Shown here: positions 8,601-47,149 of the stretch, piece by piece | Numbering within the stretch: position 1 is the stretch's first letter | How the letters are laid out: each line of letters begins with the position of its first letter | Virus record (IMG/VR): IMGVR_UViG_3300002835_000148 | Direction: 5' to 3' (one strand) | Source: a virus | Length of the DNA stretch: 64,000 nt | Notes under the pieces: model-generated | What the model was told of the DNA's origin: nothing | Seen by the model: the letters and a program-made list of their open reading frames with translations, nothing else | Databases searched by the model: none | Position numbers and translations under genes: made by a program

Positions 8601-8944
8601 TGTCTAAGAACTTCGCTTCTGAAAAAAAAGCCATAGGGCTATGCGATAGATGCGCCCAAAGATACCCTCTTAAGAAACTGCGAACCTATGTTGTCAAAGG
8701 TCGGGTCATCAATCAAAGGGTTTGCCCTACGTGCTGGGACCCAGATCACCCGCAATTATGGGTAGGCATTATCGGTGCTCAAAAGGCAACTAACGATCCT
8801 CAAGCCCTGAGAAACCCTCGTCCTGACACTAACCTGAATGACAGCAGAGGGTTGTTTGCGTGGAATCCTGTCGCCACTCAGACCATAGCAACGACAGTCA
8901 ATAGTGTTATAATTTCACAATTCGATTCATTCTCTGAAACCTAA
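8600..8944 (+). CDS. zinc-ribbon protein
   Basis: 114 aa. CDRC...CPTC four-Cys motif. TAATG overlap. Confidence 0.55.
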   Translation: MSKNFASEKKAIGLCDRCAQRYPLKKLRTYVVKGRVINQRVCPTCWDPDHPQLWVGIIGAQKATNDPQALRNPRPDTNLNDSRGLFAWNPVATQTIATTVNSVIISQFDSFSET

Positions 8945-23693: not shown

Positions 23694-26600
23694 ATGGATA
23701 AGTACGCTGGCCTTGCTTCTTTGTTCGACCCTTCTGTTGGCTCTGGCGATGCCGCGCTAGACGAGCTTATAGGGATACGCCCCTATACGGCCAAAGAACG
23801 GGAAGAGGATAAGCGGCGAGAGCTAGCGGATATAGAAGCCTACATGGGTGGCGAGGCTAGGCCAATGCAGGGTGATGGTGAGCAGAATCTCGCCTATGCC
23901 CGTAGATACTTAGAAGCTAAGGGGTTCCCTGCACATATTGCTGCTGGTGCAGTTGGTAACTTTGCACAAGAGTCAAGCGGTATTTCGGGGGGTTCCTTAA
24001 ACAAGGAGGGTGGGCTAGGTATCGCTCAATGGCGCAAAGAAAGGCTCTATGGCGGTGGCGGGTATGAAGGGCTAATCCCTTTTGCAAAACGCCAAGGGCG
24101 CTCTCCGCAAGACCTTACTACGCAGCTCGATTATTTTGTTAGTGAGTTACAAGGGCCAGAAAGAGCTGCTCTCGAAAAAGCTATGCAGACGCGCACTCCT
24201 GAGCAAGCTGCTGTCATACTTGGGCGCTACTATGAACGTCCGAATGAACAGTATGCCAACTATGAAAATAGGGCCGCGCAAGCGCGGCGCTTCGCTGCTA
24301 TCCCTGACGAGCAAATACAGAACGCTCCGTCTGGAATGTACTTAGATGTAACAGGTGGTAGGCCATTCCAACAACGGCAGGGACAATCCCCACAATACTC
24401 TCAGCTAGAAACCACCCCCATGCAGTTAAGCACAGGGCAGACGATCAATGTTGAGAAGGGCATGACTCATGCCGAGGTAGCGGCTATGCTGAAAAAAGAA
24501 GGCATAGAAGGCGTTCCGCTACGCCAATTCCAAGCGCCCAATGGTCAGACTGTCAACGCTGAATATGATATGTCTGATGACGAGGTGCTGGGTATGCTTC
24601 GCAAAGAAGCCCCTGAATATGCTACTCCTCAAGGCGCTCCCACTCCCAATAAGTCAAGCTATGGCGCTGCGGCTAAAGAATCGCTTCTGACAAGCGGTGC
24701 AGGGATATTTACAGGGCTTGGTGGAGAAACAAAAGAGCTAGGGAAAGCTGTGGCTGACACTGAACTGCTGGGGCAGTATGCGAAGCCTATAGGGGAAGCC
24801 ATTACAGGTGCTGGGGAGTCGATGCGTGGCTATGGCGAAGAGCTAGGTCATAGAGCAGAGGGCGTCTTTGAGATGCCTAAAGATGCAAGTTGGTTTGAGA
24901 AGACTGTAGGCTACCCAATCGTTCAAACAGGTGCGGGGATTGTCCCTTACGCTGCTGCGTATGCTATTCCGGGTGTAGGCCCAGCTACGGGCACTGCTGC
25001 TCTGTATGGCGGCGCTATGGGTGGGCTTGAAGAACGCGCTAAGGAAACAGGCAAAGAGTTTGTACCTAGCGAGGCACGCCCCTATGCTGTGGGCGAGACT
25101 GCCCTTGATTATGTAGGCGGCAGACTGCTCGGCCCGTTGAAAAAGTTATTCAGTGATGACGTAGTGCTGGGTGCTAGAGAGACTATTATAAAGGCTGTAG
25201 AAAAAGGCGGTATTGAAGAAGCCAAGAAACTCGTAGGCTCACGCCTCGGCAATATAGCTAAACAGGTAGGCATCACGGATGCAGCCTTCACCAGCAGTGA
25301 AGTAGCTGAGAATGTCATAGAACGCGCCTATGCTGGACAGCCCTTATTTGATGACTCTGCTCTACAGGAATATGCTGACACTGCTAAACAAGTTGCAGGT
25401 TTTGGTGGCGTTGCCGGTGTAGCGCAAGGTCTTGGCAGACACCACATCAAGGCTACAGAAGTAGCCCGCATCGAAGAGCAGAAAGCTACGGAAGAGGCGT
25501 TAGCCGCACAGAAAGCAGCCCAGCTCGCTCAGCAAACAGCCCTAGAAGAACAAGCTGTTGCTAAGGCAGAAAAGAGGAAAGAGCGCCAACCTATCGAGAT
25601 ACCTGAAGAATTACAAGGTATGCCCTATAAGGACGCTGTGCGCTACATGCAGATGCAGGAAGCCAAGGCACAACCCCCAGTAGAAGAAGTACCAGAACCT
25701 ACGGTGCAAGAGAAGCCCTACTACGAACAATTAGGGTTGAAGGCGCGTAAGAATACCCTAGTCATGAAGGGATTGAAGCAGCTTAACCCAGATGACCCTT
25801 CTCATGGCCCCACTATCAATGCGTTTCTTGATGAAATAGAAGCGAAGAATATGCCCCGCGATCAGCAGGCTATAGACGCTTTACGCACTAAACTTAACGA
25901 GGTACAACAAAATGCCCAGCAAGTCTCCGAAACAGGCCCGACTGATGGCAGCGGCGGCGCACAACCCAGCGTTCTCGAAGAAGGTGGGGATCAAACAATC
26001 AGTGGCGAAGGAATGGAACCAAGCCGACAAGGGGAGCAAGATGTTGAAGTCGATGACGAAGAACCCACGGAAAAAGTAAAAGCTGTCGCGGAAGAGGTTC
26101 CTACGGGGATGGTAAATCCTCGTGAGTTTATGCACTATAAGGATGTAACCAAGCGCACTGCTGAGTTAACCCAAGCGGCGGAGCAATTAGCTGCTGGGGA
26201 AATTACTAAGGAAGACTACGCTGCACTGGTAAACAAATATAAACCTGTTACAGCATATCGTAGTATCCCCAAGCCTGCCTCACTGGAAGAAATGTACAAC
26301 GCTTTATCTAAAGATAAAGTAGACAAAATAGGTGAGGCGAGCGGCACTCTGGAGGAAGGGGAAAATATAGGATTGCGCTTAGACATCCCCGCCTACAGGG
26401 ATCACGGCGCTTGGGTAGTCACGGTGCATACACCGCGTCGAGGGGGGTTTGCGGGTAAGCCTATTGGGTACGAAAGTGTCGCAGGAGCTACGGATGTATC
26501 TTTTGGGATTACTGAAAAAGCTGCATTAAACATAGCTAAGGGTTCTGGTAAAGCCACCATAGCGACAATGGAAGGTAAGTGGAAGCCTGTATCCCCAGAA

Positions 26601-29600
26601 GAAGCTGCAACGCTGGGAAAGCAATACCTTAATGACCCAGAATGGATTCAGGTGGGCATGGACCCGGAGCGCCATAGCTACTTCTATGATCGCGCTAACA
26701 TGGAACCCGTTACTCATGCTGAGGAGGTTTTGCAAATCGGCGGTCTAGTGTTCGCTAAAAATCCTACCTATGCCCCAGCAAGCAAATTCCTTTTCTCCGG
26801 TAGGGGCAAAAACCCAGACAAAGGAGTGCTCTCCTTACCAATACAAGAGTTCGAGTCAGCAACAGATGCTAAAGACCTGCTGAACAGATACGTCAAAATA
26901 GCTACGGATTCTCGCCTACATGATCTTGCTAAGACGTATTTAACATCTCCTCATATTGCGGCAGCCAAGGTTACATTCTTCAAGCAAGGAGACAAGATAC
27001 CGCGTAATGTTAAAAATGCCTTTGATGCAGCCAAGGCGGGTGCAGTTACCGTAGTGGGCGAAGATGGTGCTCATCTCTATTTCAAAGCAGATGATCCTAA
27101 CGTTTTCCGCGAAGACAACGTAATCCACGAAGTCACCCATGCTTTAACTGAGGCAGCTCTGGTGCGGAACCCATCTGCACGGGCGGAGCTAACAGGTCTA
27201 TCGGACAAAATAAGTCGCGTACTTCATTCCAACAACCCAAAGTACGGGAAATTCTGGGATGACATAATAGGCAAAGACCCTAGTGAAACGCTGGCATACA
27301 GCTTGACTTTGCCTTCTTTCCGACAGGTTTTAAGCAAGTACGACGAAGATGGGCATAGGCTGAAAGCTAAGCCTGCTGCATTTAAGGGCCAAGCACCTGT
27401 ACGCACCCTGTGGCAGAAATTCGTTGACACTCTTACAAGATTATTCGGCTTACCCAGCAAGCAGAAACAGGCGTATGACACTGCACTAAACGAGTATCTC
27501 GACCGCAAAGCAGAGTACGAAAAGCAAGTTGCTGACTACAACGCCCAGCGCCCAATGCAGGCTAAGCTGGATAGCATCCTACAAGAATTGCTAAAAACTA
27601 CTGCGGCTGAAGGCGTTGCTATGCCTAGCGACACCGCTGTTAAAGCAGTTTACGCAGGAAAGAGCGCTGTTGGCGCTGACTTAGGCAAACTTGAGGAAGC
27701 TGAAAAACGAACCACTGCTGGAGAAAGCGCCCAAAAAGTCCGTAAGGATACAGGCTGGTTCAAAGGCACGGAGGGCGAATGGCGTTTTGAAATTCCAGAC
27801 GACAAGGCTGAATGGGCGACAGACTGGGAAAAAATATCGGAAGCATCTGTAAGAGGCAAAGGGCTTCGTCTTGAGGATGTACTAGACGCTCCTGAATTAT
27901 TCGCTGCTTATCCTGAGCTAAAGGGGGTAAAGTTCACTAAGCGCCCTGCCCTGTTTGACTTTTATGACGAGAGTTTAGGTTGGTTTGACCCTGCAACTAA
28001 CACTCTAAACGTGACACCTAACAACCTTTCTGCTGACGCCGCGCTCGGCACTGCCCTGCACGAAATACAGCATTGGGTTCAAACAAAGGAGGGTTTTGCT
28101 CGCGGCGGCAATAGTAATTCGGTGCGCTTAAGCAACATAGATTCCTTAAATAAGCTAGCAAAATACTGGGCACGCAGCGCCCCCTCTAACTATGACGCGC
28201 TCAATGCACTGGCTATGGAAGAGCAGGGTGTGCCCTTTAGTAAGGTTAAAAGTCGTTACAACAGAGAAGATATGGTAGCTAGTGTTTTTTACGCTAAGCC
28301 TTATGACGAACTCACTGAAGCGCAGCAGCAAACTGTACGCAATAGTGCTAGCGCTAAAGCATTACAGCGCGAATTTTTAGCTTACGAGAGGGAAAAGACC
28401 GCCCCGATTGAAGAGCTTAAGGAAAATGCTGGTAAAAACGCTGCTTTATACGAAAGGGTTAACAATGCTGAAACTACGGTTAAGCTGCTAAAAGAGTATA
28501 TTGCTGATAAGAAAAGAGAGTTTAAGGGCGCTTACGATACCTCAGTAAAAGCTCGACAGTATGACCTTGCTGGAAAAATCGAAAGCACGCATAAAGCCGA
28601 AATAGAAAAGCTGGAAACTTCCCTAGATGAGAAGAAAGCAGAACTAATAGAGGCAACCGATGCCCTTAACGACTTTACTAGCCAATTCGCTGATATTCAA
28701 CACGCGCTGTATAAGCTCCTAGCTGGTGAGCGAGAAGCGCGAGATGTCGCAGGGCGGCGCAAACTGACTGCTGAGCAGCGCAGAGAGAGTGCCCCCTATA
28801 CAGCGGAGGATATTAGGGAAGATGAGGCTATAATCGTAACAGGTGCTGGAGCAGATGCCGCTAGAGTAATGTCTCGACAAACCCCTAGAGGGCAAAGAGG
28901 ATTAGCAGGCAAGCTAAAGGACAAGGACTTTGGCGAAAAACTTTCAGAAGCTGCGCGTGACGTTCTTACATCAGGGCGGCATACTTCTTTGCGTAGTGAA
29001 TGGCTTGACCAGTCTGAAGCATTGGGCAAGGTTACAGAAAACCTGCCTACTATGGTCGGTAAAAAGGCCCGTGTTGATTTCCTAGCTAGCCATTTCGCGC
29101 AGGTGGGCAATGTCATTGCTGACTCTATCCATAACGGATTCGTAAAAGATGTAGGCGACGGCTCTGTGATGACGATTAAAGATCACAGTTTAGCCCCAGA
29201 GAAGATATTCAGGCGAGTAGCTGAGACAGGCAAAAAAGAACTGTTCAACGAAATGCTGGTAGCACTTAGAGGTCGATCCATACGCGAGGCTGACATAAAA
29301 ACCAAAGCCCTTGCTGATGATCTGCTGACTAAAGCAGACGAGCTGGATGACTATGCTAGCACTCTACAGGACAAGAAGAAGCGAGCGAGCTTCACTCGGT
29401 CAGCGCAAAACCTTCGCACTCTTGCTGAGAAAAAGCTAGAGGGTATCAACTATGATAGAGGCCGCACCGAAGTCTCTGAAGAGGATATTCGTAAAGCAGA
29501 GGAGCTAGAACGCGCCGAGCCTGAGTTGGCCCGCGAAGCACAAAACGTCTATGACCTGCTGAGAAAGTCCGTTGATCTTCTCGAAGATAGCGGATTGATA

Positions 29601-31589
29601 GATTCTAAAACAGCCAAGCAGTATCGGGAGTACCCTAACTACATACCTCTGTACAAGGTGCAAGACTTTGAAGAGGCTATGATTGACCCTAAAAAGCACC
29701 TGCAACTCATCATCAGCAAAATGGGTAGAGGTGCAAACAAACTGCCTGAGATAAAGCGGCAGAAAGCTCACTTCCATGAGGTTATGGTAGAGAGTAACAT
29801 TCTCAAGCACATCGCACTGTGCACCATGACAGCAGCTAAGAACAATCTCAACAAAGCCGCAGCACTACAGATGGAACTCGTGGGTGCAGCAGAGCCTAGC
29901 AGATTAGGTAAAGACGATCCTGATGCTGTGCAATTCCGTGACAAGGGTGAGGTTAAATACTACACCATCAAAGATAAGCAGGCGTTGTTCGCTTTGCAAG
30001 CCGCGCAGCCTCTAATCAATCCTATCTTCAAACAGCTTAAGAAAGTATCAGGCGTCGTGCGCGGCGCTATGGTTATGAACCCGCTGTTCTGGTATCGGCA
30101 GTTGGTGCGTGAGCCACTGACCGCTAGCCTTGTTGGTAGAACAGGGTTGGTGACGCCTTTTGATACTCTTGCTGAAATAACCAAGATAGCCGCAGGTAAG
30201 TCCAAGCGGTATGAAGACCTGAAGCGCAGAGGCATAGTCGCAGCACAGGACGTTATCACTGACCCTATAGAGTTCATCAAATATGTCGAGAAAGGCAAAG
30301 GCTGGACAACCAAGGGCATCGAGCGGATTAAGGAAATACATGAAGCGGTGGACGGTGCTACTAGAGCGGTGGTTGCTGAACGCGCATATCAAGATGCTAT
30401 CAGTAAAGGTCTCAGCGAAGAGGATGCGAATAATCTGGCGGCGATAAAAGCACGGGAGATTATCAACTTCTCCAAGCAGGGTAGATCACAGAATGTTCGG
30501 GTCATGAGGGCCACTACGCCTTTCTTCGGCGCTGCGCTAAACGGTTTGGATGTACTGATGAAAGCCGCCATGCCTAGAAAATACGGGCGGTTGAGCAAAG
30601 CTGAAGCAATGGAAGCTAGACGTATGTTCTACTCTCGTGCGTCTATGATAGCGCTGTACACCGCAGCTTACACTATGGCAAGTTCAGATGATGAAGATTA
30701 TCTGAGCACTGTAGACCGCGCTGGTAATTGGCTGGTGCCGATAGGTAATAAGGACAACCCCTTTACCAAAATATCTATCCCCTACGAATTGGGCTTCTTC
30801 ATTAAGACGCTGCCTGAGCTTATTACGCTCCTGAACATGGGGGCTATCTCTACTAAAAAGGCCGTAACAGAAGCGGGCAAAGCAGCTTGGGAAACGGTGG
30901 TTCCCCCTATGCCGACTATCTATGCAATCAAACCCTTGGTAGAAGCCTTTATAAACTTTGACTTCCATACGCAAAGCCCCATAGAAACAGGCTCCGATTC
31001 CAGAGGAATGATACACCTCAGAAATAAGAAGGCGGGTGAGCTAACCAAAGCGGTTGCAAGCAAGCTGCACGATGCAGGGATAGACCTAGAAACTCTGTCT
31101 CCTGATCGTATGGAGCACATAATGGAGGGCTTCTTTGGGCAGATATGGGGTGTGACTCGCGCCGTGTCAGACTATTTTATGTACGATGGCCCTGAGAAAC
31201 CTGAGAAGATTCTTTCAGATTTACCCCTGATCGGCGGTGCATTTACCAAAGGCGCTAGGGATGCTGCGGTGAATGACTTCTACACGGTTTATAACAATGT
31301 TCGAGACCTTGCTGAGAGTGTGTCCAAGTTGGAAAAGGGCGGTGACGTAGATACCCTAGAGAAGCTGCGCGAAGACAAAAACTACGCAAAGTACATGAGA
31401 GCTAACACCCCGCTAGGCGACAAGATGCAGGCTATGGATAATAAAATGCAGATCATAACGCGCATCGAGAAAGACCCTACGATAGACGCTGCGGAAAAGA
31501 AACGCAGGATAGACATTCAGAACGAACAGCGCAATACGCTCGCCAAGCAAGGACTGGATATTGCTAGAAAGCTAGGTCTGGAGTTTTAG
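23694..31589 (+). CDS. giant polyvalent virion protein with N-terminal lysozyme-like domain
   Basis: Single 2631-aa ORF. About 23900..24300 encodes NFAQESSG..GLGIAQW..YYERP (phage tail-lysozyme type). HEVTH at 27126..27140 and HEIQH at 28059..28073 are zincin-like motifs. Confidence 0.75.
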   Translation: MDKYAGLASLFDPSVGSGDAALDELIGIRPYTAKEREEDKRRELADIEAYMGGEARPMQGDGEQNLAYARRYLEAKGFPAHIAAGAVGNFAQESSGISGGSLNKEGGLGIAQWRKERLYGGGGYEGLIPFAKRQGRSPQDLTTQLDYFVSELQGPERAALEKAMQTRTPEQAAVILGRYYERPNEQYANYENRAAQARRFAAIPDEQIQNAPSGMYLDVTGGRPFQQRQGQSPQYSQLETTPMQLSTGQTINVEKGMTHAEVAAMLKKEGIEGVPLRQFQAPNGQTVNAEYDMSDDEVLGMLRKEAPEYATPQGAPTPNKSSYGAAAKESLLTSGAGIFTGLGGETKELGKAVADTELLGQYAKPIGEAITGAGESMRGYGEELGHRAEGVFEMPKDASWFEKTVGYPIVQTGAGIVPYAAAYAIPGVGPATGTAALYGGAMGGLEERAKETGKEFVPSEARPYAVGETALDYVGGRLLGPLKKLFSDDVVLGARETIIKAVEKGGIEEAKKLVGSRLGNIAKQVGITDAAFTSSEVAENVIERAYAGQPLFDDSALQEYADTAKQVAGFGGVAGVAQGLGRHHIKATEVARIEEQKATEEALAAQKAAQLAQQTALEEQAVAKAEKRKERQPIEIPEELQGMPYKDAVRYMQMQEAKAQPPVEEVPEPTVQEKPYYEQLGLKARKNTLVMKGLKQLNPDDPSHGPTINAFLDEIEAKNMPRDQQAIDALRTKLNEVQQNAQQVSETGPTDGSGGAQPSVLEEGGDQTISGEGMEPSRQGEQDVEVDDEEPTEKVKAVAEEVPTGMVNPREFMHYKDVTKRTAELTQAAEQLAAGEITKEDYAALVNKYKPVTAYRSIPKPASLEEMYNALSKDKVDKIGEASGTLEEGENIGLRLDIPAYRDHGAWVVTVHTPRRGGFAGKPIGYESVAGATDVSFGITEKAALNIAKGSGKATIATMEGKWKPVSPEEAATLGKQYLNDPEWIQVGMDPERHSYFYDRANMEPVTHAEEVLQIGGLVFAKNPTYAPASKFLFSGRGKNPDKGVLSLPIQEFESATDAKDLLNRYVKIATDSRLHDLAKTYLTSPHIAAAKVTFFKQGDKIPRNVKNAFDAAKAGAVTVVGEDGAHLYFKADDPNVFREDNVIHEVTHALTEAALVRNPSARAELTGLSDKISRVLHSNNPKYGKFWDDIIGKDPSETLAYSLTLPSFRQVLSKYDEDGHRLKAKPAAFKGQAPVRTLWQKFVDTLTRLFGLPSKQKQAYDTALNEYLDRKAEYEKQVADYNAQRPMQAKLDSILQELLKTTAAEGVAMPSDTAVKAVYAGKSAVGADLGKLEEAEKRTTAGESAQKVRKDTGWFKGTEGEWRFEIPDDKAEWATDWEKISEASVRGKGLRLEDVLDAPELFAAYPELKGVKFTKRPALFDFYDESLGWFDPATNTLNVTPNNLSADAALGTALHEIQHWVQTKEGFARGGNSNSVRLSNIDSLNKLAKYWARSAPSNYDALNALAMEEQGVPFSKVKSRYNREDMVASVFYAKPYDELTEAQQQTVRNSASAKALQREFLAYEREKTAPIEELKENAGKNAALYERVNNAETTVKLLKEYIADKKREFKGAYDTSVKARQYDLAGKIESTHKAEIEKLETSLDEKKAELIEATDALNDFTSQFADIQHALYKLLAGEREARDVAGRRKLTAEQRRESAPYTAEDIREDEAIIVTGAGADAARVMSRQTPRGQRGLAGKLKDKDFGEKLSEAARDVLTSGRHTSLRSEWLDQSEALGKVTENLPTMVGKKARVDFLASHFAQVGNVIADSIHNGFVKDVGDGSVMTIKDHSLAPEKIFRRVAETGKKELFNEMLVALRGRSIREADIKTKALADDLLTKADELDDYASTLQDKKKRASFTRSAQNLRTLAEKKLEGINYDRGRTEVSEEDIRKAEELERAEPELAREAQNVYDLLRKSVDLLEDSGLIDSKTAKQYREYPNYIPLYKVQDFEEAMIDPKKHLQLIISKMGRGANKLPEIKRQKAHFHEVMVESNILKHIALCTMTAAKNNLNKAAALQMELVGAAEPSRLGKDDPDAVQFRDKGEVKYYTIKDKQALFALQAAQPLINPIFKQLKKVSGVVRGAMVMNPLFWYRQLVREPLTASLVGRTGLVTPFDTLAEITKIAAGKSKRYEDLKRRGIVAAQDVITDPIEFIKYVEKGKGWTTKGIERIKEIHEAVDGATRAVVAERAYQDAISKGLSEEDANNLAAIKAREIINFSKQGRSQNVRVMRATTPFFGAALNGLDVLMKAAMPRKYGRLSKAEAMEARRMFYSRASMIALYTAAYTMASSDDEDYLSTVDRAGNWLVPIGNKDNPFTKISIPYELGFFIKTLPELITLLNMGAISTKKAVTEAGKAAWETVVPPMPTIYAIKPLVEAFINFDFHTQSPIETGSDSRGMIHLRNKKAGELTKAVASKLHDAGIDLETLSPDRMEHIMEGFFGQIWGVTRAVSDYFMYDGPEKPEKILSDLPLIGGAFTKGARDAAVNDFYTVYNNVRDLAESVSKLEKGGDVDTLEKLREDKNYAKYMRANTPLGDKMQAMDNKMQIITRIEKDPTIDAAEKKRRIDIQNEQRNTLAKQGLDIARKLGLEF

Positions 31590-36087: not shown

Positions 36088-38574
36088 TTACAAGGCACCT
36101 CCCAAAAAGCTCTGATACATTTCCAACAAACTTTTTTGCGCCAGTGTGCGGCTGGCTAGCGCTTTGTACAATTTGGTCTCAACAGGACTGCTGCATAGGT
36201 GGACTACCAAACAAGGATTCTTCTGCCCCGATCTATGCACCCGTGCATTGGCCTGTAAATATGTCTCCGCCGATGTCGTTGGGGAGAACCATACTACCGT
36301 ATTAGCTGCTGTCAGTGTAACCCCATGTGCCGCCGCCTGTGGCTGAATGACTAGCACCTGTGGGTTTTTATCAGTCTGAAACTCTTTGAAAATAACCGTG
36401 CGCTTTTTAGCCGACACATCACCGTGTATCGCTGCTGTGGTTATGCCATGCTTATTCAGGTAGCGCTCGACCAAATCTATCGAGTGCCGAAAGGCGCAAA
36501 ACACTAGCGTTTTATGCGAGACTTGCTGAACAATGTCCAGCAATTCTTCCAGTTTGTTAGAGCAGTCAAACTCAACAACCTCTCCAGTGTCAGAATACAC
36601 TGATCCACAATTATGCACAATAAGCGGCCCTTGGTGCCCAGCTACAACAAACCTAGCCCTGGGTCCGCAGTTAAGTAAGTCGTAAGTTTTTTGCTCTTGT
36701 CTGGAGGCACCATCAGGGCTATTTCTACGGGCCAACCCGCCTTTAGGCGTCTTCTCAATGTGATAGGCTTGATCCCATACGCCTTCGCCGCTTGTGCTAT
36801 GGGCATTAAACCTTTCGGGGTGTCTATGAGTACATTCGTCCGTTTGTTCAGCCCCTGCTGTTCTGCGGTAGCCCATCGGCAATTTTCTGGGGAATATGGG
36901 CCATTGTTGTCTATTCGATCCAGTGTGAGCCCCTTCTTGTATACCGGCCCCATATCTAACCAAAACGCCGCGAATGAATACCGCCAACTTTCGCATACTG
37001 CTATACCCCGTGCCCCGTAATTTTTGTAGTCCTTGTTGGAGGGATTGTGACAACGGAGTATCATGTTTTGATAATTGGAATACGCCTGATGGTAACTCAT
37101 TTTGTGCGTTTCGTTCCCGTGGTGGCAGCCACAACTCCTTGGGTATTTTCTGTGCTTCGCCCGCAAGTATTGGCTCTCCCTTTCCGTAATGTTCCCACAA
37201 TCGCAAAGACAAAGCCATCTGGCTTTTTTTGCTTTCCCAACTGATGTTCCGGCCCTTGCTATCACAGTCAGGTAGCCGAACTTTCGCTGCATCAAATCTA
37301 TAGCCGGATTTGCCATATAGTATATCTCCTGCTGTGCGCCAACCTTGTGTAGTAAGGACATTATGATCTAGTGTCATAGATACCCCGTAGCAGTCCTCTA
37401 CTTGCTTAACTCCTCGGAATATGACTCCACCATGATCTACCCATTCCTCTCCATCCCAGACTTTATGCTTGGCTGATACGTCTTGTATAGGTATCCAGCC
37501 TATATCCGTGAGTACCGGAGTATTATACACTATGCACGAAATTTGCAATAGCTTCCCCATCTGCACAGCGGCATTTACCGCTGATATATCCGTCCCCGCC
37601 GCCTGAATGAGCTGCTCTTTCCTCAGCTTATCATAGTATTTTTTCTGCTGCGCTGTCATAGGTATTTGCCTATCTGAATACAGCATATCCGGTAAGTCTA
37701 GGCAGTCTTCTGTCTTGTATCGAATGGCTGGCTGAAGCGCTTCATACACAATATCTTGAGCTTCTGGGCGCGGAACGTATTTGAACTGCGACGTTTTCAG
37801 CATCACTTTGTCTTTCCATGCTCCAGCATATCCCGGCACAGCGCTTGGATTCACTAGCCTAGCCTGACCATACGCATCTTCTGGTGACTGCGCTGCGGGT
37901 GTTCCTGTCAATAGCCAGAGCCATGTGTCTGCCTTTATCAATGAGTTTAGCGTCTTCCATCGCCTTGTCTTTACATTCTTTAGCGCAGTGCTCTCGTCAC
38001 ACACAATCAGGTCAAAGCCACCCTGCAATATCTCATCGCGCACCACTTCAATCCCGTCATAGTTGATGATGACAAAATCGGCCTTACCCTTTATAACGGC
38101 GATGCGCTGCTCTTTCGTGCCGTGGGCTATACCCACTCGCCTGTGCATAACTGTATTGAATAGGTCTGACCGCCATGCACAATCCATGATAGACAGTGGG
38201 CATACGATCAACACGCGCTTTATTGCTTTGGTGTTCAGCAGGTAGTCTGCGGCCCACGCTACAGCAGAGGTCTTCCCCGTCCCCATCGCATTAAGGCAAA
38301 ACGCTCTCCTGTGCAATGTCAGAAACGATGCAGTGTCCCTCTGATGGTCAAACGGGCTGTATATTCCGGGCCAGTCGTACTTACCAAGGATAGGTGACAG
38401 CACCTTTTTGAAGCCTAGGTTTTTCAGAATCATGGCATTGCCCAGATTCCAATGCACAGCAACATCGTGCACTCCATGCCCTTCTTTTATAACCTTGGAC
38501 TTTTGAATCACCTGAGTGATTTTGTCTGGGTTCTTTGTACGCACAACAAGTGCGCTATTTGCTAATACTTCCAT
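36088..38574 (-). CDS. SNF2-family helicase, intein-containing precursor
   Basis: 828-codon continuous frame. Motifs NAMGTGKTS, LIVCDESTAL, LTGTP, QPQAAAHGVTLT and QANARVHRSGQ. Interrupted at aa 347-655. Confidence 0.85.
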   Translation of the reverse strand: MEVLANSALVVRTKNPDKITQVIQKSKVIKEGHGVHDVAVHWNLGNAMILKNLGFKKVLSPILGKYDWPGIYSPFDHQRDTASFLTLHRRAFCLNAMGTGKTSAVAWAADYLLNTKAIKRVLIVCPLSIMDCAWRSDLFNTVMHRRVGIAHGTKEQRIAVIKGKADFVIINYDGIEVVRDEILQGGFDLIVCDESTALKNVKTRRWKTLNSLIKADTWLWLLTGTPAAQSPEDAYGQARLVNPSAVPGYAGAWKDKVMLKTSQFKYVPRPEAQDIVYEALQPAIRYKTEDCLDLPDMLYSDRQIPMTAQQKKYYDKLRKEQLIQAAGTDISAVNAAVQMGKLLQISCIVYNTPVLTDIGWIPIQDVSAKHKVWDGEEWVDHGGVIFRGVKQVEDCYGVSMTLDHNVLTTQGWRTAGDILYGKSGYRFDAAKVRLPDCDSKGRNISWESKKSQMALSLRLWEHYGKGEPILAGEAQKIPKELWLPPRERNAQNELPSGVFQLSKHDTPLSQSLQQGLQKLRGTGYSSMRKLAVFIRGVLVRYGAGIQEGAHTGSNRQQWPIFPRKLPMGYRRTAGAEQTDECTHRHPERFNAHSTSGEGVWDQAYHIEKTPKGGLARRNSPDGASRQEQKTYDLLNCGPRARFVVAGHQGPLIVHNCGSVYSDTGEVVEFDCSNKLEELLDIVQQVSHKTLVFCAFRHSIDLVERYLNKHGITTAAIHGDVSAKKRTVIFKEFQTDKNPQVLVIQPQAAAHGVTLTAANTVVWFSPTTSAETYLQANARVHRSGQKNPCLVVHLCSSPVETKLYKALASRTLAQKSLLEMYQSFLGGAL
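36610..37536 (-). mobile_element. intein in SNF2 helicase (309 codons)
   Basis: Begins CIVYNTPVLT (Cys codon 37536..37534). TLDHNV block. Ends YDLLNCGPRARFVVAGHQGPLIVHN (Asn 36612..36610) followed by a Cys extein residue. Confidence 0.8.
36642..37316 (-). CDS. homing-endonuclease-like protein nested out of frame (+1) inside the helicase intein
   Basis: 224 aa from an ATG with AGGAG 9 nt upstream (ORF-track 36642..37361). Motifs WLCLCDCG..SCGC, YKNYGARGI and LDRIDNNGPYSPENCRW are shared with 40515..41234 and 42547..43041. Confidence 0.7.
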   Translation of the reverse strand: MANPAIDLMQRKFGYLTVIARAGTSVGKAKKARWLCLCDCGNITERESQYLRAKHRKYPRSCGCHHGNETHKMSYHQAYSNYQNMILRCHNPSNKDYKNYGARGIAVCESWRYSFAAFWLDMGPVYKKGLTLDRIDNNGPYSPENCRWATAEQQGLNKRTNVLIDTPKGLMPIAQAAKAYGIKPITLRRRLKAGWPVEIALMVPPDKSKKLTTYLTADPGLGLL

Positions 38575-39856: not shown

Positions 39857-42553
39857 TTAAAAATAACTCTCTAACTTCTTCATTTTGAATGATAAATTAT
39901 CTCCGAACCCGCACTCGGCGTCCAGCGGTATGTTGGGCAGCCACTCTGGAGGTCTACGAAGCTCCTCTACAATAAACTTCATAGCTTCTAGTGATTGCTC
40001 GGTCGGTACAATACCGTAGAGCGCGTCATGGATAGTCAGCCCGACAGGGTACTTCTTGTGTACTCTTACCATAGCCTCGCCCATCACGCACCTAGCCAAT
40101 GCCTGAATGATATTCTGAAAGCATTTGGCGGCGTGTATATGCACTGGCCCTTTGCGCGTTTTGTACACCCATTGTAGCCTGTTCGAGCTATCCATAGAGG
40201 GTGTCAGGTCATTATAGGTCATATACAAATTGGAAGGTAGCCTGATGCCCCGCGCTCCGATAACTTTCAGCGATAGCGCTCCTAAACCAATGTCGTATTC
40301 TTCATTTTGTGCAATCGCGTACAGCGCGTTACCTGCATCATGCCAAGCTTTTTTGACCATATAGTAATCATCTCGGTAAATTTCTACGACTTTTTTAGCA
40401 AATGTTTCTCCAATGTCCCTACCGGATAGCATCTTGATTTGCTCACGTAATTTCACATGGCCTGTGCCATAGATCAAACTTAACTGACAGTTATGTACAA
40501 TTATTGGGCCGGAATCAGTCAAGATCGTAAATCTGTTCCTCGGCCCGGCGCAAAGCAAGTCGTAAACGGGCAATCTCCGCCTCAAGCTCACTGATTTGGC
40601 GCTTGTTTCTGGTATTCTCCGCTCTGGAGATAAACCTAATGTTGCCCGGTTCGTAATTACCATTATTGTCGATGCGATCCATGTCAAACTCTGGAACATC
40701 CCAACCATCAAGTGTTTGCGCGTGCGCGAGAAACTGCGCTTTATCCATGCGCCATAGTGCGTACACCGTGATGCCTCGGCCCCCATAGTTTTTATAGTTG
40801 CCGTCTTTGGTGTTATGGCAGCGGTTAATTGCTGCGGCGATTCGGTTAAGCAACCTACGCCGATGCTGGTCATTAGGCATGGCTTTGGTGTAAGCCCAGA
40901 ACCTTTTAGTCCGACCTGCTGTAAGCCCGCATTGATGGCATCTAGTGCTTTTGAAGTCTTTGAAATTATGCTTATCCACAGTGTATTCAGGGAGGCCGCA
41001 GTCGCATTGGACAATAAGCGCGGCAACTCCCCCTCGCGGGCCTTGAATGTAGCCTGTAACGGTAAGTTTGCCGCTCCTATACCCAATGCTTGGGAGAGGA
41101 TGGACGCATCTGAAACCACTGATTGACTTTCCAACCACTGAGTCCCTGACCACACTAGATGATCCGGTGTTAACCAACTCCCGCAAAGACTCAATGTTTC
41201 TTTGTAACCTTTCGACACTAATCCTTGGTGGCATACCCACTCCTCCCCATCCCATACTTTGTCTGACAAAGAAACCGCTTCAATCGGCTTCCATCCTGAG
41301 TAGCATAATACTAGAGTTCCCTCGGCAATACAAGTTTTTCCAACGAAGCGCTGCTCGTCTGTGACATCTGCATATCTTATGTTAAACGCTGATGCAGCAA
41401 AGTCTTTATACAGGTCAAGCCCATCGCCCAGCATCTCTAGCTTATCCATCTGCCCAGCAAAGTACAGGCCCACACGCAGCTCGATGTTAGACAAGTCAGC
41501 ACCCACTATGCTATAGCCCAAAGGCGCGACGATAGCCTTCTTTAGCGGAGAAGTGCGAGGCAAATTCTGCAGATTGATTGAGTCCACTGCCGACCAGCGC
41601 CCTGTGATCGCGCCATAGTATTTTAGAGGTACAGGTAGCGAACCACTCTCTTCTGCTATGCGAATGAAGCGCTCTGTGCGGGTTTCTTCGAGTGTGCTCT
41701 TGACGCCTAGCCTAGCAGCAACTACAGCCTGTACACTGAAATTATCATGCTCCAGCAGTGCTTTGAACTCTGCATCACTCTTGGCAAAAGCGTAGGCAAT
41801 CTTGCCCGTTCGCGGGCTTACTTTCACCGGAGGTGTAACACCAAAACTTTTAAGCACTTCCGCCAGCTTCGGGTTCGACATCAAGTCTTCTTTAGCAATA
41901 CCGCTCTCTATAAGCAGGATTGTTTTCCTACCACGCACATCCGTTAAGTGCTCGTGTAACAGTGCGGTGTCTAGTTGAAATTGTGGCTTTGTGTGCATCT
42001 TGATCGTCATGTCGATCAACGCAATTTCCGACTTGATAAATGCTGGGGCTAGTCGCTTGAACAACTCATAGGTTAGCTCTACGTCATTCTTGCAGTATTC
42101 CCCATACGCCTTTAACTCTAACTCTGCGAAATCTGCACGGCGTTTACCCATAGCAAGGACAACTTCTTCACCCTTTACCCCTAGCTCGTAGCGTTCAGCT
42201 AGCGCTTTGAGCGATCCACCTGCGTCAACACCATGTACGGCGCGGGCCATAGACAGAGTATCGAGTATCAGCTTAGGGTGAATCCCGAACCGCCACGCTA
42301 GAATAGACGCATCAAACAGCGCATTGTGAGCCAGCATAAACGCATTGGCCCAGTCAAAACAACCAAGCCAGTCCCTAATTTCTTCATGCGTTCCGCTAAA
42401 CCATGCTGCCGGTTCATCGTTCTTCTTTACTGCAACGCCGATAGTTTCATATCGTTCGTCATCTACGTAGCTCTGAGTCGTTACGTCTTTGCGTGATAAG
42501 CTGTACTCTTTGCTATAGTAGGTTTCTATATCCACCGTAAACATATTTAGCAT
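39857..42553 (-). CDS. family A DNA polymerase with 3'-5' exonuclease, intein-containing precursor
   Basis: 898-codon continuous frame. Exo motifs FTVDIET and HNALFD. Pol motif A GADLSNIELR and motif C LTIHDALY. Motif B (RFVGKT / QLSLIYG) is split by an intein at aa 408-688. Confidence 0.88.
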   Translation of the reverse strand: MLNMFTVDIETYYSKEYSLSRKDVTTQSYVDDERYETIGVAVKKNDEPAAWFSGTHEEIRDWLGCFDWANAFMLAHNALFDASILAWRFGIHPKLILDTLSMARAVHGVDAGGSLKALAERYELGVKGEEVVLAMGKRRADFAELELKAYGEYCKNDVELTYELFKRLAPAFIKSEIALIDMTIKMHTKPQFQLDTALLHEHLTDVRGRKTILLIESGIAKEDLMSNPKLAEVLKSFGVTPPVKVSPRTGKIAYAFAKSDAEFKALLEHDNFSVQAVVAARLGVKSTLEETRTERFIRIAEESGSLPVPLKYYGAITGRWSAVDSINLQNLPRTSPLKKAIVAPLGYSIVGADLSNIELRVGLYFAGQMDKLEMLGDGLDLYKDFAASAFNIRYADVTDEQRFVGKTCIAEGTLVLCYSGWKPIEAVSLSDKVWDGEEWVCHQGLVSKGYKETLSLCGSWLTPDHLVWSGTQWLESQSVVSDASILSQALGIGAANLPLQATFKAREGELPRLLSNATAASLNTLWISIISKTSKALDAINAGLQQVGLKGSGLTPKPCLMTSIGVGCLTESPQQLTAAITPKTATIKTMGAEASRCTHYGAWIKRSFSRTRKHLMVGMFQSLTWIASTIMVITNRATLGLSPERRIPETSAKSVSLRRRLPVYDLLCAGPRNRFTILTDSGPIIVHNCQLSLIYGTGHVKLREQIKMLSGRDIGETFAKKVVEIYRDDYYMVKKAWHDAGNALYAIAQNEEYDIGLGALSLKVIGARGIRLPSNLYMTYNDLTPSMDSSNRLQWVYKTRKGPVHIHAAKCFQNIIQALARCVMGEAMVRVHKKYPVGLTIHDALYGIVPTEQSLEAMKFIVEELRRPPEWLPNIPLDAECGFGDNLSFKMKKLESYF
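40490..41332 (-). mobile_element. intein in DNA polymerase motif B (281 codons)
   Basis: Begins CIAEGTLVL (Cys 41332..41330). KVWDGEEWV and TPDHLV blocks. Ends VYDLLCAGPRNRFTILTDSGPIIVHN (Asn 40492..40490) followed by Cys. Confidence 0.8.
40515..41234 (-). CDS. homing-endonuclease-like protein nested out of frame inside the polymerase intein
   Basis: 239 aa from an ATG with GGAGG 7 nt upstream (ORF-track 40515..41255). Motifs QCDCG..RCHQCG, YKNYGGRGI and MDRIDNNGNYEPGN. Coiled-coil-like C-terminus. Confidence 0.7.
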   Translation of the reverse strand: MPPRISVERLQRNIESLRELVNTGSSSVVRDSVVGKSISGFRCVHPLPSIGYRSGKLTVTGYIQGPRGGVAALIVQCDCGLPEYTVDKHNFKDFKSTRCHQCGLTAGRTKRFWAYTKAMPNDQHRRRLLNRIAAAINRCHNTKDGNYKNYGGRGITVYALWRMDKAQFLAHAQTLDGWDVPEFDMDRIDNNGNYEPGNIRFISRAENTRNKRQISELEAEIARLRLALRRAEEQIYDLD

Positions 42554-43041
42554 ATGCCTTTCTCCTGCATAAACGCCCTAACTATTGCTTCCTTTTCTGG
42601 GCTTAATCTGGCGCAATTAAAGCCTTCTTTGTCTTTGTGCCTTACTCGCCAAATGTAATGATGCGCGGTCATTGTCTTCACACCCATGAGGACGCCTAAT
42701 TCCCATGCCATAGTTTTAGCATAGTTGCGATTTCGCGCCTGTGTTTGTCGTGTAGCCCAACAGCAATTATCAGGGCTGTACCCTTTGTTTACATCAACTC
42801 TTTCTAGTGTGTGCTTGCTCGTAGGGCGTCGCCCCATATCCGATAAGAAATTTTCGTAGAGCAACCATTCAGCTATGACAGAGATTCCCCGCCCCCCGTA
42901 GTGCTTATAATCTACGGCTCTAGTGTTGAAACACCTATTTTTCATCATTTGCCATGAGCGATATTCTGGAGTAGCCACGCGCCGCCCATTTACGTAGCGC
43001 ACTTCCCCGCACGCTTTTACAGCCATTACTTTATCAGGCAT
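42547..43041 (-). CDS. free-standing homing-endonuclease-like protein (paralogue of the nested genes)
   Basis: 164 aa. Sequence TPEYRSWQMMKNRC..YKHYGGRGISV..LERVDVNKGYSPDNCCWAT. Overlaps the polymerase start by 7 nt. Confidence 0.7.
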   Translation of the reverse strand: MPDKVMAVKACGEVRYVNGRRVATPEYRSWQMMKNRCFNTRAVDYKHYGGRGISVIAEWLLYENFLSDMGRRPTSKHTLERVDVNKGYSPDNCCWATRQTQARNRNYAKTMAWELGVLMGVKTMTAHHYIWRVRHKDKEGFNCARLSPEKEAIVRAFMQEKGIC

Positions 43042-43362: not shown

Positions 43363-43593
43363 TTAACCATCACCGCTACCCTCGCCATCACCGTAGCCAG
43401 CACCACTGCCACTACCGTGGCTGAAACTACTACCTATGTCAGTGCCAAAGCCCTCTACCGCTTCAAAGTACCATTCAGGGCAATCGTTTACACCATCGCC
43501 AGCACCAGCGCCATTACCGATACCCCACCCGTGACCACGCCCTGAGTAGTGGCCTGAGTTATCTCCTTCGTTAGTGAGTTTATAGGGTGGCAT
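43363..43593 (-). CDS. glycine-rich small protein, array member 5
   Basis: 76 aa from the internal ATG (MPPYKLTNEGDNSGH..). GGGAGGTGGGAAG precedes the ATG. 14-nt overlap with member 4. Confidence 0.5.
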   Translation of the reverse strand: MPPYKLTNEGDNSGHYSGRGHGWGIGNGAGAGDGVNDCPEWYFEAVEGFGTDIGSSFSHGSGSGAGYGDGEGSGDG

Positions 43594-43831
43594 CTTCCCA
43601 CCTCCCGCTGTAACCGCCCTCACCATCGCCATAACCCGCACCGCCCCCCTCCCCCTCGCCACTGCCCTCGCCAGCGCAGCCTCCAATACCCCCATCCGCG
43701 CCGTCCCCACCGCCAGTGCTATCACCAGCGCCAGCATCATATCCGTAAGTAGATAGATCGCCCCAGCCCCTACCCTGCCCTGTGCCGAGGCATAAGTTAT
43801 CTCCATTGTTAGTGAATCTATAGGTCAACAT
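43580..43831 (-). CDS. glycine-rich small protein, array member 4
   Basis: 83 aa, MLTYRFTNNGDN.. ends GRWEDATL. Same SD/ATG junction. Confidence 0.5.
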   Translation of the reverse strand: MLTYRFTNNGDNLCLGTGQGRGWGDLSTYGYDAGAGDSTGGGDGADGGIGGCAGEGSGEGEGGGAGYGDGEGGYSGRWEDATL

Positions 43832-44090
43832 CTTCCCACCTCCCGTTGTAGCCACCCTCACCTGCGCCTCCGCCGGAGCCATCTCCATCACCATAGCCAT
43901 CGGCATAGCTGTCTTCATTGACCTCACAATCACCATTCCCAAAACCGTCGCCAGAGCCACTATACCTGCCGTGACCTATTCTAACGTGGCTGAGAGTAGC
44001 AGCATTACCGGAGCCGTAACCCCATCCCCAACAGCGACCTGAGTCGTGGCCTGAGCTATCTCCTCCGTTAGTAAGTTTATAGGTCAACAT
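43818..44090 (-). CDS. glycine-rich small protein, array member 3
   Basis: 90 aa, MLTYKLTNGGDSSGH.. ends GRWEDVDL. Same junction. Confidence 0.5.
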   Translation of the reverse strand: MLTYKLTNGGDSSGHDSGRCWGWGYGSGNAATLSHVRIGHGRYSGSGDGFGNGDCEVNEDSYADGYGDGDGSGGGAGEGGYNGRWEDVDL

Positions 44091-44286
44091 CTTCCCACCT
44101 CCCAGTAGCGCTCCCTCTACCCTCGCCGGAACCACCGCCGAAGCCGTTGCCGTCGCCGTCGCCGTCGCCGTTGCCATAGCCGTTGCCGTAGCCGTATCCG
44201 CTGCCGTTGCCGTAGCCGTGGCCGTGGCCGTAGCCCCATTGGGAATCGTGGTCGTTACTCAGTATCTTAGGGGACATAGGGGTCAA
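44077..44286 (-). CDS. glycine-rich small protein, array member 2
   Basis: 69 aa (TTG start per ORF track; ATG at 44277). Has a (G-X)n run GYGHGHGYGNGSGYGYGNGYGNGDGDGDGNGFG and ends GRWEDVDL. Confidence 0.5.
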   Translation of the reverse strand: MTPMSPKILSNDHDSQWGYGHGHGYGNGSGYGYGNGYGNGDGDGDGNGFGGGSGEGRGSATGRWEDVDL

Positions 44287-44303
44287 TGCCTTCGCTAGTG
44301 AGT

Positions 44304-44600
44304 TTATAGGGCATTGTCTTTCCAGCTCCCATCACGACCTCCTCTACCGTTGCCAGAACCCCAGCCGATGCCCACGCCAGTGCCCAAGCCGGAGCCTCCC
44401 ACCGCACCGCCGCCGGAGCCTTCTACCCTGCCAGCATCTGTTATGACAGTCCCGTGTGATCGACCCATGCCGTCGCCGTAGCCGGAACCGGAAAGGCTAA
44501 TAGCACCGTAGCCATAGCCATTACCGGAAGCAGTGCCGCGCCCCCTGCCATTAGTAGAGCCACAGTCGTTATTCAGTATCTTAGGGGACATAGGGGTCAA
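44304..44600 (-). CDS. glycine-rich small protein, array member 1
   Basis: 98 aa (TTG start per ORF track; ATG at 44591). MSPKILNNDCGS.. ends GSWKDNAL. Confidence 0.5.
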   Translation of the reverse strand: MTPMSPKILNNDCGSTNGRGRGTASGNGYGYGAISLSGSGYGDGMGRSHGTVITDAGRVEGSGGGAVGGSGLGTGVGIGWGSGNGRGGRDGSWKDNAL

Positions 44601-46513: not shown

Positions 46514-47149
46514 CTAAGCCATCAGTGCAGCCCAACTCACGGGGAATAACTGCTGAATAAACCCGCTAAACTCCTCAACCACATCTCTCGTTTCCTTCTG
46601 TGCGTGTGAGTCTAGTCTTAGTTTGCACACCCGAGCGAAGAAAACCAGCGAGCCTGTCCATATCCATGTGGTTTCTGAGCATATAGGGATGACCACACGC
46701 GCTTGTTCAGGACATACACCACTTTCAATCAAGTAGTCGTATGTAGCCAAACATTGATCCATTAGTTGATTTATATGCTCTTGATCTACGTTTACTAGCT
46801 CATCGCTTGAGCCTTGCTTCACATTCTCTGCGGCTCTGCGCCATTTGGTAGGCACATCTAACACAGGTGAGGTACTTACATACCGCCTGCTCACCTCATT
46901 AACAACCCCACCGACTTGATGTTTAGCCAACTGACGGGCTACATAGATAGGCATAGTCACCCTAAACTTTATGCTCGTGTGCGCGAACGGAGTCCAGTGT
47001 TTGTTCTTTGCGAGGTAGTGGATTAACTTCGCATCCTTTTCTGACAAAATAATTGCCGATTCGTACTCTGACTCTTTATCAAAGCTGACTCGCGCTGCGT
47101 TCACCACATCCAAATCGTCGCCCATGTAGTCTAGTAATTCAACGTGCAT
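46514..47149 (-). CDS. thyX: flavin-dependent thymidylate synthase ThyX
   Basis: 211 aa. DVVNAARVSF, HWTPFAHTSIKF and KHQ..NEVSRRY correspond to ThyX signature regions. Confidence 0.78.
   Translation of the reverse strand: MHVELLDYMGDDLDVVNAARVSFDKESEYESAIILSEKDAKLIHYLAKNKHWTPFAHTSIKFRVTMPIYVARQLAKHQVGGVVNEVSRRYVSTSPVLDVPTKWRRAAENVKQGSSDELVNVDQEHINQLMDQCLATYDYLIESGVCPEQARVVIPICSETTWIWTGSLVFFARVCKLRLDSHAQKETRDVVEEFSGFIQQLFPVSWAALMA

Follow-up and report, generated by a model that had tools for sequence, protein, structure and literature searches.

Five overlapping glycine-rich phage genes as probable diverged paralogs of a (Gly-X)n protein encoded behind DUF6948

Introduction

What kind of protein is encoded by a row of five small, glycine-rich genes in the early arm of a phage genome, and why should such genes stand so closely joined, one behind the other? 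The question is raised by the IMG/VR virus record IMGVR_UViG_3300002835_000148, of which we analysed a stretch of 64,000 nucleotides (nt), referred to below as the window. An original prediction, made from the letters of the DNA, had singled out at 43363-44600 a tandem array of five glycine-rich open reading frames (ORFs), here called m1 to m5, and had left them without a family. Here we describe how these five genes appear, from their sequence and position, to be translationally chained and diverged paralogs of a small (Gly-X)n protein that is found behind genes of the family DUF6948, and we weigh what such an array might do for the phage.

Results

In the array region of the window all ORFs lie on the minus strand, and seven of them overlap in a single chain. 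Its first cistron is the DUF6948 gene (44874-44581, 97 amino acids (aa)), followed in the canonical position directly behind it by m1 (44591-44304, 95 aa, MSPKIL...GSWKDNAL), which from an alternative TTG at 44600 would have 98 aa. A relay ORF of 15 aa, MPYKLTSEGIDPYVP (44314-44267), stands between m1 and m2 (44277-44077, 66 aa), and m2 is followed by m3 (44090-43818, 90 aa, MLTYKLTN...GRWEDVDL), m4 (43831-43580, 83 aa, MLTYRFTN...GRWEDATL) and m5 (43593-43363, 76 aa, MPPYKLTN...GEGSGDG), the last member, which has no WED..L tail; the coordinates of the five members run from the ATG through the stop inclusive. The lengths of these consecutive ORFs and their glycine content of 29-36% (34, 35, 29, 36 and 30% in m1 to m5, against 8% in the upstream neighbour) bear out the description first given of them, as does the G(R/S)W(E/K)D..L end shared by four members. 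The five-gene chain that had been described is also real, and it is part of a longer one: its start at DUF6948 and the relay ORF had been missed.

Down the chain from DUF6948 the consecutive overlaps measure 11, 11, 11, 14, 14 and 14 nt, and every ORF is in the +1 frame relative to its predecessor. Between DUF6948 and m1 the stop and the ATG overlap over 11 nt, while m1 and m2 are not directly joined, the relay ORF bridging them with 11-nt overlaps at both of its ends; the junctions m2/m3, m3/m4 and m4/m5 have the 14-nt overlap and +1 shift that had been read from them originally. One and the same Shine-Dalgarno stretch, GGGAGGTGGGAAG, precedes the start codons of m3 (44103-44091, inside the coding sequence of m2), m4 (43844-43832) and m5 (43606-43594), with its GGAGG core 7 nt before the ATG, and its bases also code for the G-R-W-E-D of the preceding protein. 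The claim that these three junctions are identical holds for this stretch and fails for the overlaps, which differ from one another (ATGTTGACCTATAA, ATGTTGACCTATAG, which has a TAG stop, and ATGCCACCCTATAA), the triplet that had been given as CC(T/C) being ACC in two of them. A degenerate form of the junction pattern matched twice in the window against 0.00 matches expected (100 shuffles). No promoter- or terminator-like site was found on the minus strand within the array, and neither an Rfam family nor a tRNA turned up when the window was scanned. A stop/start overlap with an embedded Shine-Dalgarno sequence is kept in every relative examined, its core being weaker than GGAGG in some, and six consecutive overlaps of 11-14 nt are the architecture expected for translational coupling, in line with the termination-reinitiation that had been proposed.

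The wider kinship of the members is indicated by the gene in front of them. In a survey of 79 further DUF6948 loci from IMG/VR, 71 (~90%) carry a (G-X)n ORF that starts at the DUF6948 stop on the same strand; in 63 of these 71 the ATG lies exactly at that stop, and in 45 the overlap has the modal length of 13 nt, with the consensus ATGGAANNNNTAA. The flanks, which amount to 313 kb, hold only six comparable (G-X)n ORFs, four of them being extra (G-X)n genes at the same locus (contigs L050 and L068) and the other two lying in L057 and L067. Three (G-X)n genes surround one DUF6948 gene in L050 and the whole pair is duplicated in tandem in L068, extra copies that arose independently. The canonical partners have a median length of 84 aa and a median net charge of -8, and their X residues are Ser (40%), Tyr (30%) and Asp (23%), the Ala codon GCY, equally possible at X, making up just 1.4%. 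Codons of the repeats end in pyrimidines (Gly as GGY in 88%, Ser as TCY in 95% and never as AGY, 92% pyrimidine at the third position overall), and in some canonical partners the repeats are followed by a globular domain at the C-terminus.

The same pair is found in Ralstonia phage NK-7, where the gene after DUF6948 encodes a 137-aa (GS/GY/GD)n protein annotated as 'fibroin heavy chain-like' (XCO36015), and in Pectobacterium phage Sabo, where the partner (XDF89731) starts MSKLIKPEKYGDGSGYGSG and overlaps DUF6948 by 17 nt, as well as in contigs L014 and L103. The protein P0009, which gives a weak match to the profile of the window family (E 4.6e-3) and starts METLLTNSGDGSGYGDG, is encoded directly behind DUF6948 in an unrelated temperate phage, and P0019 is placed likewise. 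In addition, the profile phrog_18306 contains a weak Gly-X match at about positions 62-130 (E 0.0023-0.12) and a DUF6948 match at 153-236 (E 1.2e-5), which hints at a fused Gly-X/DUF6948 form. Neighbours of the pair are mostly early recombination and replication genes (YqaJ, RecT, Erf/SSB, RusA, HNH endonucleases, methylases), a heterogeneous set among which the survey found no single conserved third partner.

Related repeats were also observed in other settings. In other phage-like contigs, DUF7666 domains bear a fused (GY/GD/GN/GS)n repeat at their C-terminal end (P0003, P0004, P0010, P0012, P0014, P0016, P0022 and 5001-5498 of L102), and in L045, L047, L052, L065, L087 and P0017 the repeat is followed by a conserved domain of ~150 aa (FAHGETLR...YHHVLTGSCRMGR) without a Pfam match. 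Many viral contigs in IMG/VR stop within ~70-550 nt of the end of DUF6948, in many cases inside the (Gly-X)n repeat (L019, L026, L028, L037, L044, L046, L049, L058-L060, L062, L064, L086, L088, L091, L094 and L096), which suggests that the repeat breaks short-read assemblies or lies near genome ends, and (Gly-X)n genes would for this reason be under-recorded.

The array of the window can be joined to this family by position and by sequence. Like the canonical proteins of Sabo and NK-7, its members show the position behind DUF6948 with an overlap, a glycine register of period two, acidity and small size. Their N-termini fall into two types, MSPKIL in m1 and m2 and an M..YKLTN-like type 2 in m3 to m5, and both have a canonical likeness: MSKLIKP (MSKL(I/N)KP) resembles the MSPKIL of m1, and METLLTNSGDGSG resembles the type-2 form M.TYKLTNSGDGSG (M.TYKLTN.GD.SG). 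Because m1 stands in the canonical position and the N-termini resemble canonical ones, the array is probably an amplified and diverged version of the partner gene, so that the earlier failure to match its proteins to any family no longer stands. Unlike canonical partners, the copies in the window are several in number and much less repetitive, with conserved non-repeat segments and with Arg, Trp, His, Asn and Cys, and only they bear the junction-encoded WED..L tails. The relay ORF, which joins a type-2 N-terminus to a copy of the C-terminal tail of DUF6948 (IDPYVP), is a scar in which a type-2 start was fused to a copy of the last DUF6948 codons, and the copied tail shows that m2 arose by copying of the DUF6948/m1 junction into the array.

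The partner itself is assigned to DUF6948 by Pfam (PF22253, E 5.7e-26), which gives no other family, and the family comprises at least 6,960 protein clusters in a metagenome database. An AlphaFold2 model of the protein (32-sequence alignment) reached a predicted local distance difference test score (pLDDT) of 93.9 and a predicted template modelling score of 0.85, and it shows the N-terminal helix and strongly bent five-stranded beta-barrel of the Sm fold. In a Foldseek comparison of the model with the Protein Data Bank (PDB), the top 50 matches listed are Sm/LSm chains or entries of spliceosomes and small nuclear ribonucleoproteins, including archaeal SmAP, Lsm1-7/2-8 and spliceosomal Sm proteins, at a probability of 1.0, and the viral models that it matches are those of other DUF6948 proteins and of phage proteins named 'Sm-like'. 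The fold of DUF6948 is therefore predicted with high confidence to be Sm/LSm-like. A PDB sequence search with DUF6948 at E up to 1 gave no match. Directly upstream of DUF6948 in L008 lies a gene (8548-8898) with the precomputed Pfam label Acb2_Tad1_hairpin, the name of an anti-CBASS/Thoeris sponge family; the label was not reproduced by hmmscan (E up to 0.01).

Substitution patterns speak for translation of the members. The ratio of nonsynonymous to synonymous substitution rates (dN/dS), pooled over m1 to m5, is 0.42-0.54 in the annotated frame versus 0.78-1.07 in the other two sense frames; orthologue groups taken singly range from 0.12 (m5, against L001) to ~1, and DUF6948 gives 0.07 (against L001). 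Every orthologue group recurs in related contigs of several samples, and the members are real genes that evolve fast. The plus strand, which opposes all surrounding genes, has no ORF longer than 67 aa in the array. Glycine-rich codons leave the other sense frames open, so that mechanical ORF lists (43363-43806, 43580-43960 and 43818-44177, minus strand) and public gene calls lengthen members at their upstream end, across the gene in front. For the lengthened gene calls P0001 (155 aa) and P0038 (147 aa), substitution patterns indicate that the added parts are not coding; P0001 does hold an orthologue of m3 (91% identical), the one relative found in a word-indexed search with m3.

Arrays of this kind were recognized in a group of related contigs. 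The same array as in the window is present in L005 (JGI Ga0453693_0000095, 67 kb), L009, L011 and L012. There are five members in L003, L006 and L007, with an m2 of 82-84 aa, and in L008, where one has a GTG start; six in L010, including a chimera with an m5-type N-terminus on an m4 body and one overlap of 29 nt; and seven in L001 and L002, whereas variants missing some members occur in L097 and L100 and a partial array in L004. An orthologue of m1 is found in L001, L003, L008, L010 and L100, m4 is identical in L003, and the relay ORF is kept in L001 (16 aa) and L003 and absent from L008 and L010, both of which are without a second MSPKIL-type gene. An extra array member (L001, P0005 and P0034) ends in ILQDDEIP, which resembles DDDIPF, the tip of the single-stranded DNA-binding protein SSB. 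A metagenome scan for the junction returned five stretches, namely L001 itself, the variants L097 and L100, and L099 and L101, which have no recognisable array. Broken frames in related genomes had been named as an outcome that would speak against the genes; in the related contigs that span the whole array the copy number is 4-7, all ORFs stay open and all overlaps are kept, as for genuine conserved paralogs. The entire early region of these phages is mosaic, not the array alone.

In composition, the members keep the imprint of a dipeptide repeat. Glycine follows a strict period-2 register along whole proteins (residues at even/odd positions: 0/23 in m5, 22/1 in m2 and 5/25 in m4), a further sign that the frames are coding, and the window members have lost most of their DNA repetitiveness yet keep this register. 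Their X residues are broader than Ser, Tyr and Asp (also N, H, A, R, W and E), and a long pure (G-X)n run, of 33 residues, is found only in m2, where it is underlain by a 6-nt DNA repeat (44136-44235); the length of m2 among relatives is 66, 70, 80, 82 or 84 aa. The isoelectric point is 9.0 for the basic m1 and 4.0-4.5 for the acidic m2 to m5. An AlphaFold2 model of m3 (8-sequence alignment) has a pLDDT of 30, and m3, the sole member modelled, is predicted to be intrinsically disordered. None of the five members matches GxHxH motifs or the RTX nonapeptide GGxGxDxUx; their Cys residues are few, and they show no leader peptide, double-glycine motif or hydrophobic stretch. Within 10 kb on either side of the DUF6948 gene, a span that reaches ~8.8 kb past the array, precomputed Pfam labels name replication and nucleotide-metabolism genes or give no match, and none among them is a YcaO, radical-SAM, lanthionine-synthetase or export gene; the observation that maturation enzymes are missing nearby was correct.

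Direct searches contributed little. Among GenBank phages the array had no match by megablast, blastn or tblastn, and the Pfam and PHROGs candidates for the five members (TrAA12 linker, keratin head) were set aside as sub-threshold matches of composition. In the literature, a full-text search found no paper that mentions DUF6948, no paper was found on DUF7666, and nothing relevant was found on 'fibroin heavy chain-like' phage proteins or on phage-encoded pairs of Sm-like and glycine-rich proteins.

The neighbours of the array in the window are a PD-(D/E)xK nuclease gene and a DNA polymerase gene. The former had been labelled VRR-NUC, for which Pfam gives no support; this nuclease gene has a weak match to Hjc (E 0.009) and matches PHROGs annotated as 'endonuclease' and 'Holliday junction resolvase'. 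Between nuclease and polymerase lies an ORF of 164 aa (42547-43041, minus) without a Pfam match, which is present in the window, L005, L009 and L012 and absent from L003, L006, L007 and L010. The DNA polymerase A gene (39857-42553, minus) and an SNF2-type helicase gene (36088-38574, minus) contain intein-like insertions of 281 and 309 aa, respectively, both of which start with Cys and have IVHN as their last residues, with a Cys next; they resemble each other in their C-terminal blocks (YDLL..GPR.RF) and are absent from the otherwise near-identical relative L006. The 164-aa ORF may be a mobile insertion of the homing-endonuclease kind that goes along with the inteins. A ThyX-type thymidylate synthase gene of the early arm (46514-47149, minus; Pfam Thy1, E 1.7e-41) varies in position among relatives, lying downstream of the array in L008, and the plus-strand, presumably structural, arm of the window includes a single ORF of 2,631 aa (23694-31589).

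Discussion

In this work we trace an array of glycine-rich genes to a partner of DUF6948, and the structural and evolutionary part of this account is one that we consider very probable. The array would be co-transcribed and translationally chained, and unequal recombination would have multiplied the partner gene in this lineage of freshwater phages. Each duplication would have included the junction itself, with its Shine-Dalgarno sequence, ATG and stop, and a duplicated junction would lead copies to end in G-R-W-E-D..L, GGGAGG being the Shine-Dalgarno core, and to start with M..YKLTN. The stop/start overlap would give coupled and roughly matched synthesis of both gene products. The functional part is put forward tentatively: the (Gly-X)n proteins may serve a putative ring of DUF6948 as disordered acidic tails that are encoded apart from it and supplied in trans, with the mostly acidic, aromatic repeat tuning nucleic-acid binding or driving assembly or condensation early in infection, and with the several diverged copies serving as alternative tails. 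Taken together, an amplified paralog array whose (Gly-X)n products act with a DUF6948 ring is a proposal to which we give about an even chance. Its extension to DUF6948 and (Gly-X)n proteins at large, as a widespread phage system in which an Sm-like ring and a length-variable disordered dipeptide-repeat protein assemble on RNA or single-stranded DNA, possibly as a condensate, and reprogram nucleic-acid metabolism early, with the five-gene array providing interchangeable tails for one ring, is a conjecture that we would sooner doubt than assert.

Several observations weigh against this account. Adjacency and coupling of DUF6948 and (Gly-X)n genes are no proof of binding, and m1 is basic, not acidic. 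The structural match of DUF6948 is moderate (E ~1e-3, TM score 0.55 by query and 0.75 by target), and its sequence yields no Sm/LSm or Hfq family match in Pfam and no Sm1/Sm2 motifs. An exhaustive hidden Markov model (HMM) scan of 1.84 billion representatives returned 12 matches, of which the real ones all belong to the same lineage, and HMM homology of the window members to canonical S/Y/D repeats is weak (best P0009, E 4.6e-3), in a test limited by low complexity. Since the scan stayed within its own lineage, profile methods are blind to the wider class, which was revealed by gene neighbourhood instead. Furthermore, the antisense frame that shares wobble positions with the annotated frame has an equally low dN/dS (0.38-0.46), and the two are inseparable by this measure; the annotated strand is preferred because of stop codons at Tyr positions in the antisense frame, the architecture of the starts and the gene context. 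By our own codon reading, a TAC codon for Tyr after a codon ending in C, such as GGC, gives a TAG stop in that frame. Lastly, the neighbouring genes serve mostly DNA recombination and replication, and the ligand may for this reason be DNA rather than RNA.

A host-takeover or anti-defence role, as proposed in the original prediction, is a candidate, while the conserved pairing with an Sm-like partner suggests in the first place a role that involves nucleic acids. Of the other explanations the one that survives best, though we think it unlikely, takes the members as host-takeover or anti-defence decoys that are independent of DUF6948, for example acidic mimics of nucleic acids or of SSB tails, whose copies diversify in an arms race. 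The position in the early region, dN/dS values (0.3-0.8) raised above the 0.07 of DUF6948, mosaic recombination, variation in copy number, the acidity of m2 to m5, the likeness of the extra member's ILQDDEIP end to the SSB tip and the precomputed sponge label on the neighbour in L008 are all in keeping with decoys. However, the entire early region is equally mosaic, the sponge label was not reproduced, and the WED..L tail, which is missing from m5 and the canonical members, owes its sequence largely to the Shine-Dalgarno stretch and ATG that overlap it. A coupling to DUF6948 that is nearly obligate among unrelated phages speaks for a function of the two together.

It is improbable that the repeat acts at the level of RNA or DNA with the peptides incidental, either as a (GGY-NNY)n RNA platform for the Sm-like protein or as a hotspot of recombination or slippage. 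Sm-family proteins do bind repetitive RNA motifs, the third-position bias of the repeats is extreme (92% pyrimidine, Ser never AGY), and many metagenomic contigs end inside the repeat. Against this, X is limited to Ser, Tyr and Asp in the canonical partners although Ala codons would serve equally well, 63 of 71 loci keep the ATG right at the stop of DUF6948, the ORF closes shortly behind the repeats, and the window members are de-repeated yet keep their glycine register, their ORFs and a dN/dS below 1; no Rfam match was found. Still less probable, and pure speculation, is that the proteins are 'slippery' glycine-rich substrates that stall or occupy host AAA+ proteases such as ClpXP and Lon and so spare phage proteins. 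The Gly-Ala repeat of EBNA1 and other glycine-rich tracts impede proteases, and only composition, predicted disorder and a probable high expression judged from codon choice favour this idea here; the members lack a degradation tag or folded domain that an unfoldase could grip, and the Sm-like partner would be left unexplained. Least credible of all are precursors of ribosomally synthesized and post-translationally modified peptides or bacteriocins (microcin B17-like), the glycine-rich peptide toxins of the original prediction, and polyglycine-II fibre elements like those of gp38, since tandem small glycine-rich genes with conserved ends and variable cores do resemble a precursor array but are found here in a replication/early module outside the tail-fibre module, with no maturation or export genes, leader, double-glycine motif or hydrophobic stretch, few Cys, no GxHxH or RTX motifs and an m3 pLDDT of 30.

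Whichever function the proteins prove to have, in this array nature offers a clean case of many overlapping cistrons in a row, with a duplicated junction (Shine-Dalgarno, ATG and stop) that would set both protein termini. The (Gly-Ser/Tyr/Asp)n companion is a near-constant associate of the large DUF6948 family that is missed by profiles, often mis-called and often a point at which assemblies break. The pair of DUF6948 and (Gly-X)n proteins that we favour as partners can be tested in cultured phages, as it occurs in its simple form in Ralstonia phage NK-7 and in Pectobacterium phage Sabo and relatives of the latter. If the two proteins work together, they would add a new case to the nucleic-acid-binding barrels that use a disordered, glycine-rich tail, one in which the tail comes in trans and can be amplified.

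By analogy, the nearest known kind would be an Sm-type barrel with a glycine-rich disordered tail, the phage version differing in that the tail is split into a coupled gene, built of Gly-X dipeptides and amplified into a chained array. The Hfq of Acinetobacter baumannii combines an Sm core with a disordered C-terminal domain of GGFGGQ repeats and an acidic tip, where repeats and acidic tip affect RNA binding and autoregulation and the number of repeats matters (PMC11617691). The phage pair shares with it a small Sm-type beta-barrel, a long, glycine-rich, repeat-based disordered segment and acidic residues. In contrast, the phage core and its glycine-rich part are made as two polypeptides coupled in translation, the repeat unit has two residues (G-X, with X being S, Y or D), the core has no sequence similarity to Hfq, and the partner is amplified to five copies in the window and 4-7 in related contigs; nucleic-acid binding by the phage pair is putative, by analogy. 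Eukaryotic SmD1, SmD3 and LSm4 likewise associate the Sm fold with Gly-X dipeptide repeats, in the form of Arg-Gly tails that are basic, covalently attached and methylated, whereas those of the phages are acidic or aromatic and separately encoded. Bacterial SSB, in turn, has an OB fold, a glycine-rich disordered linker and the acidic tip DDDIPF; the phage pair resembles it in joining a small beta-barrel to glycine-rich sequence, often stands among recombination genes and in L001 includes a member ending in DDEIP, but the predicted fold of DUF6948 is Sm-like, not OB, and the canonical (G-S/Y/D)n proteins have no such tip. If our reading of the pair is right, phages would possess a split and modular version of the 'beta-barrel plus glycine-rich tail' design that is known from Hfq, Sm proteins and SSB.

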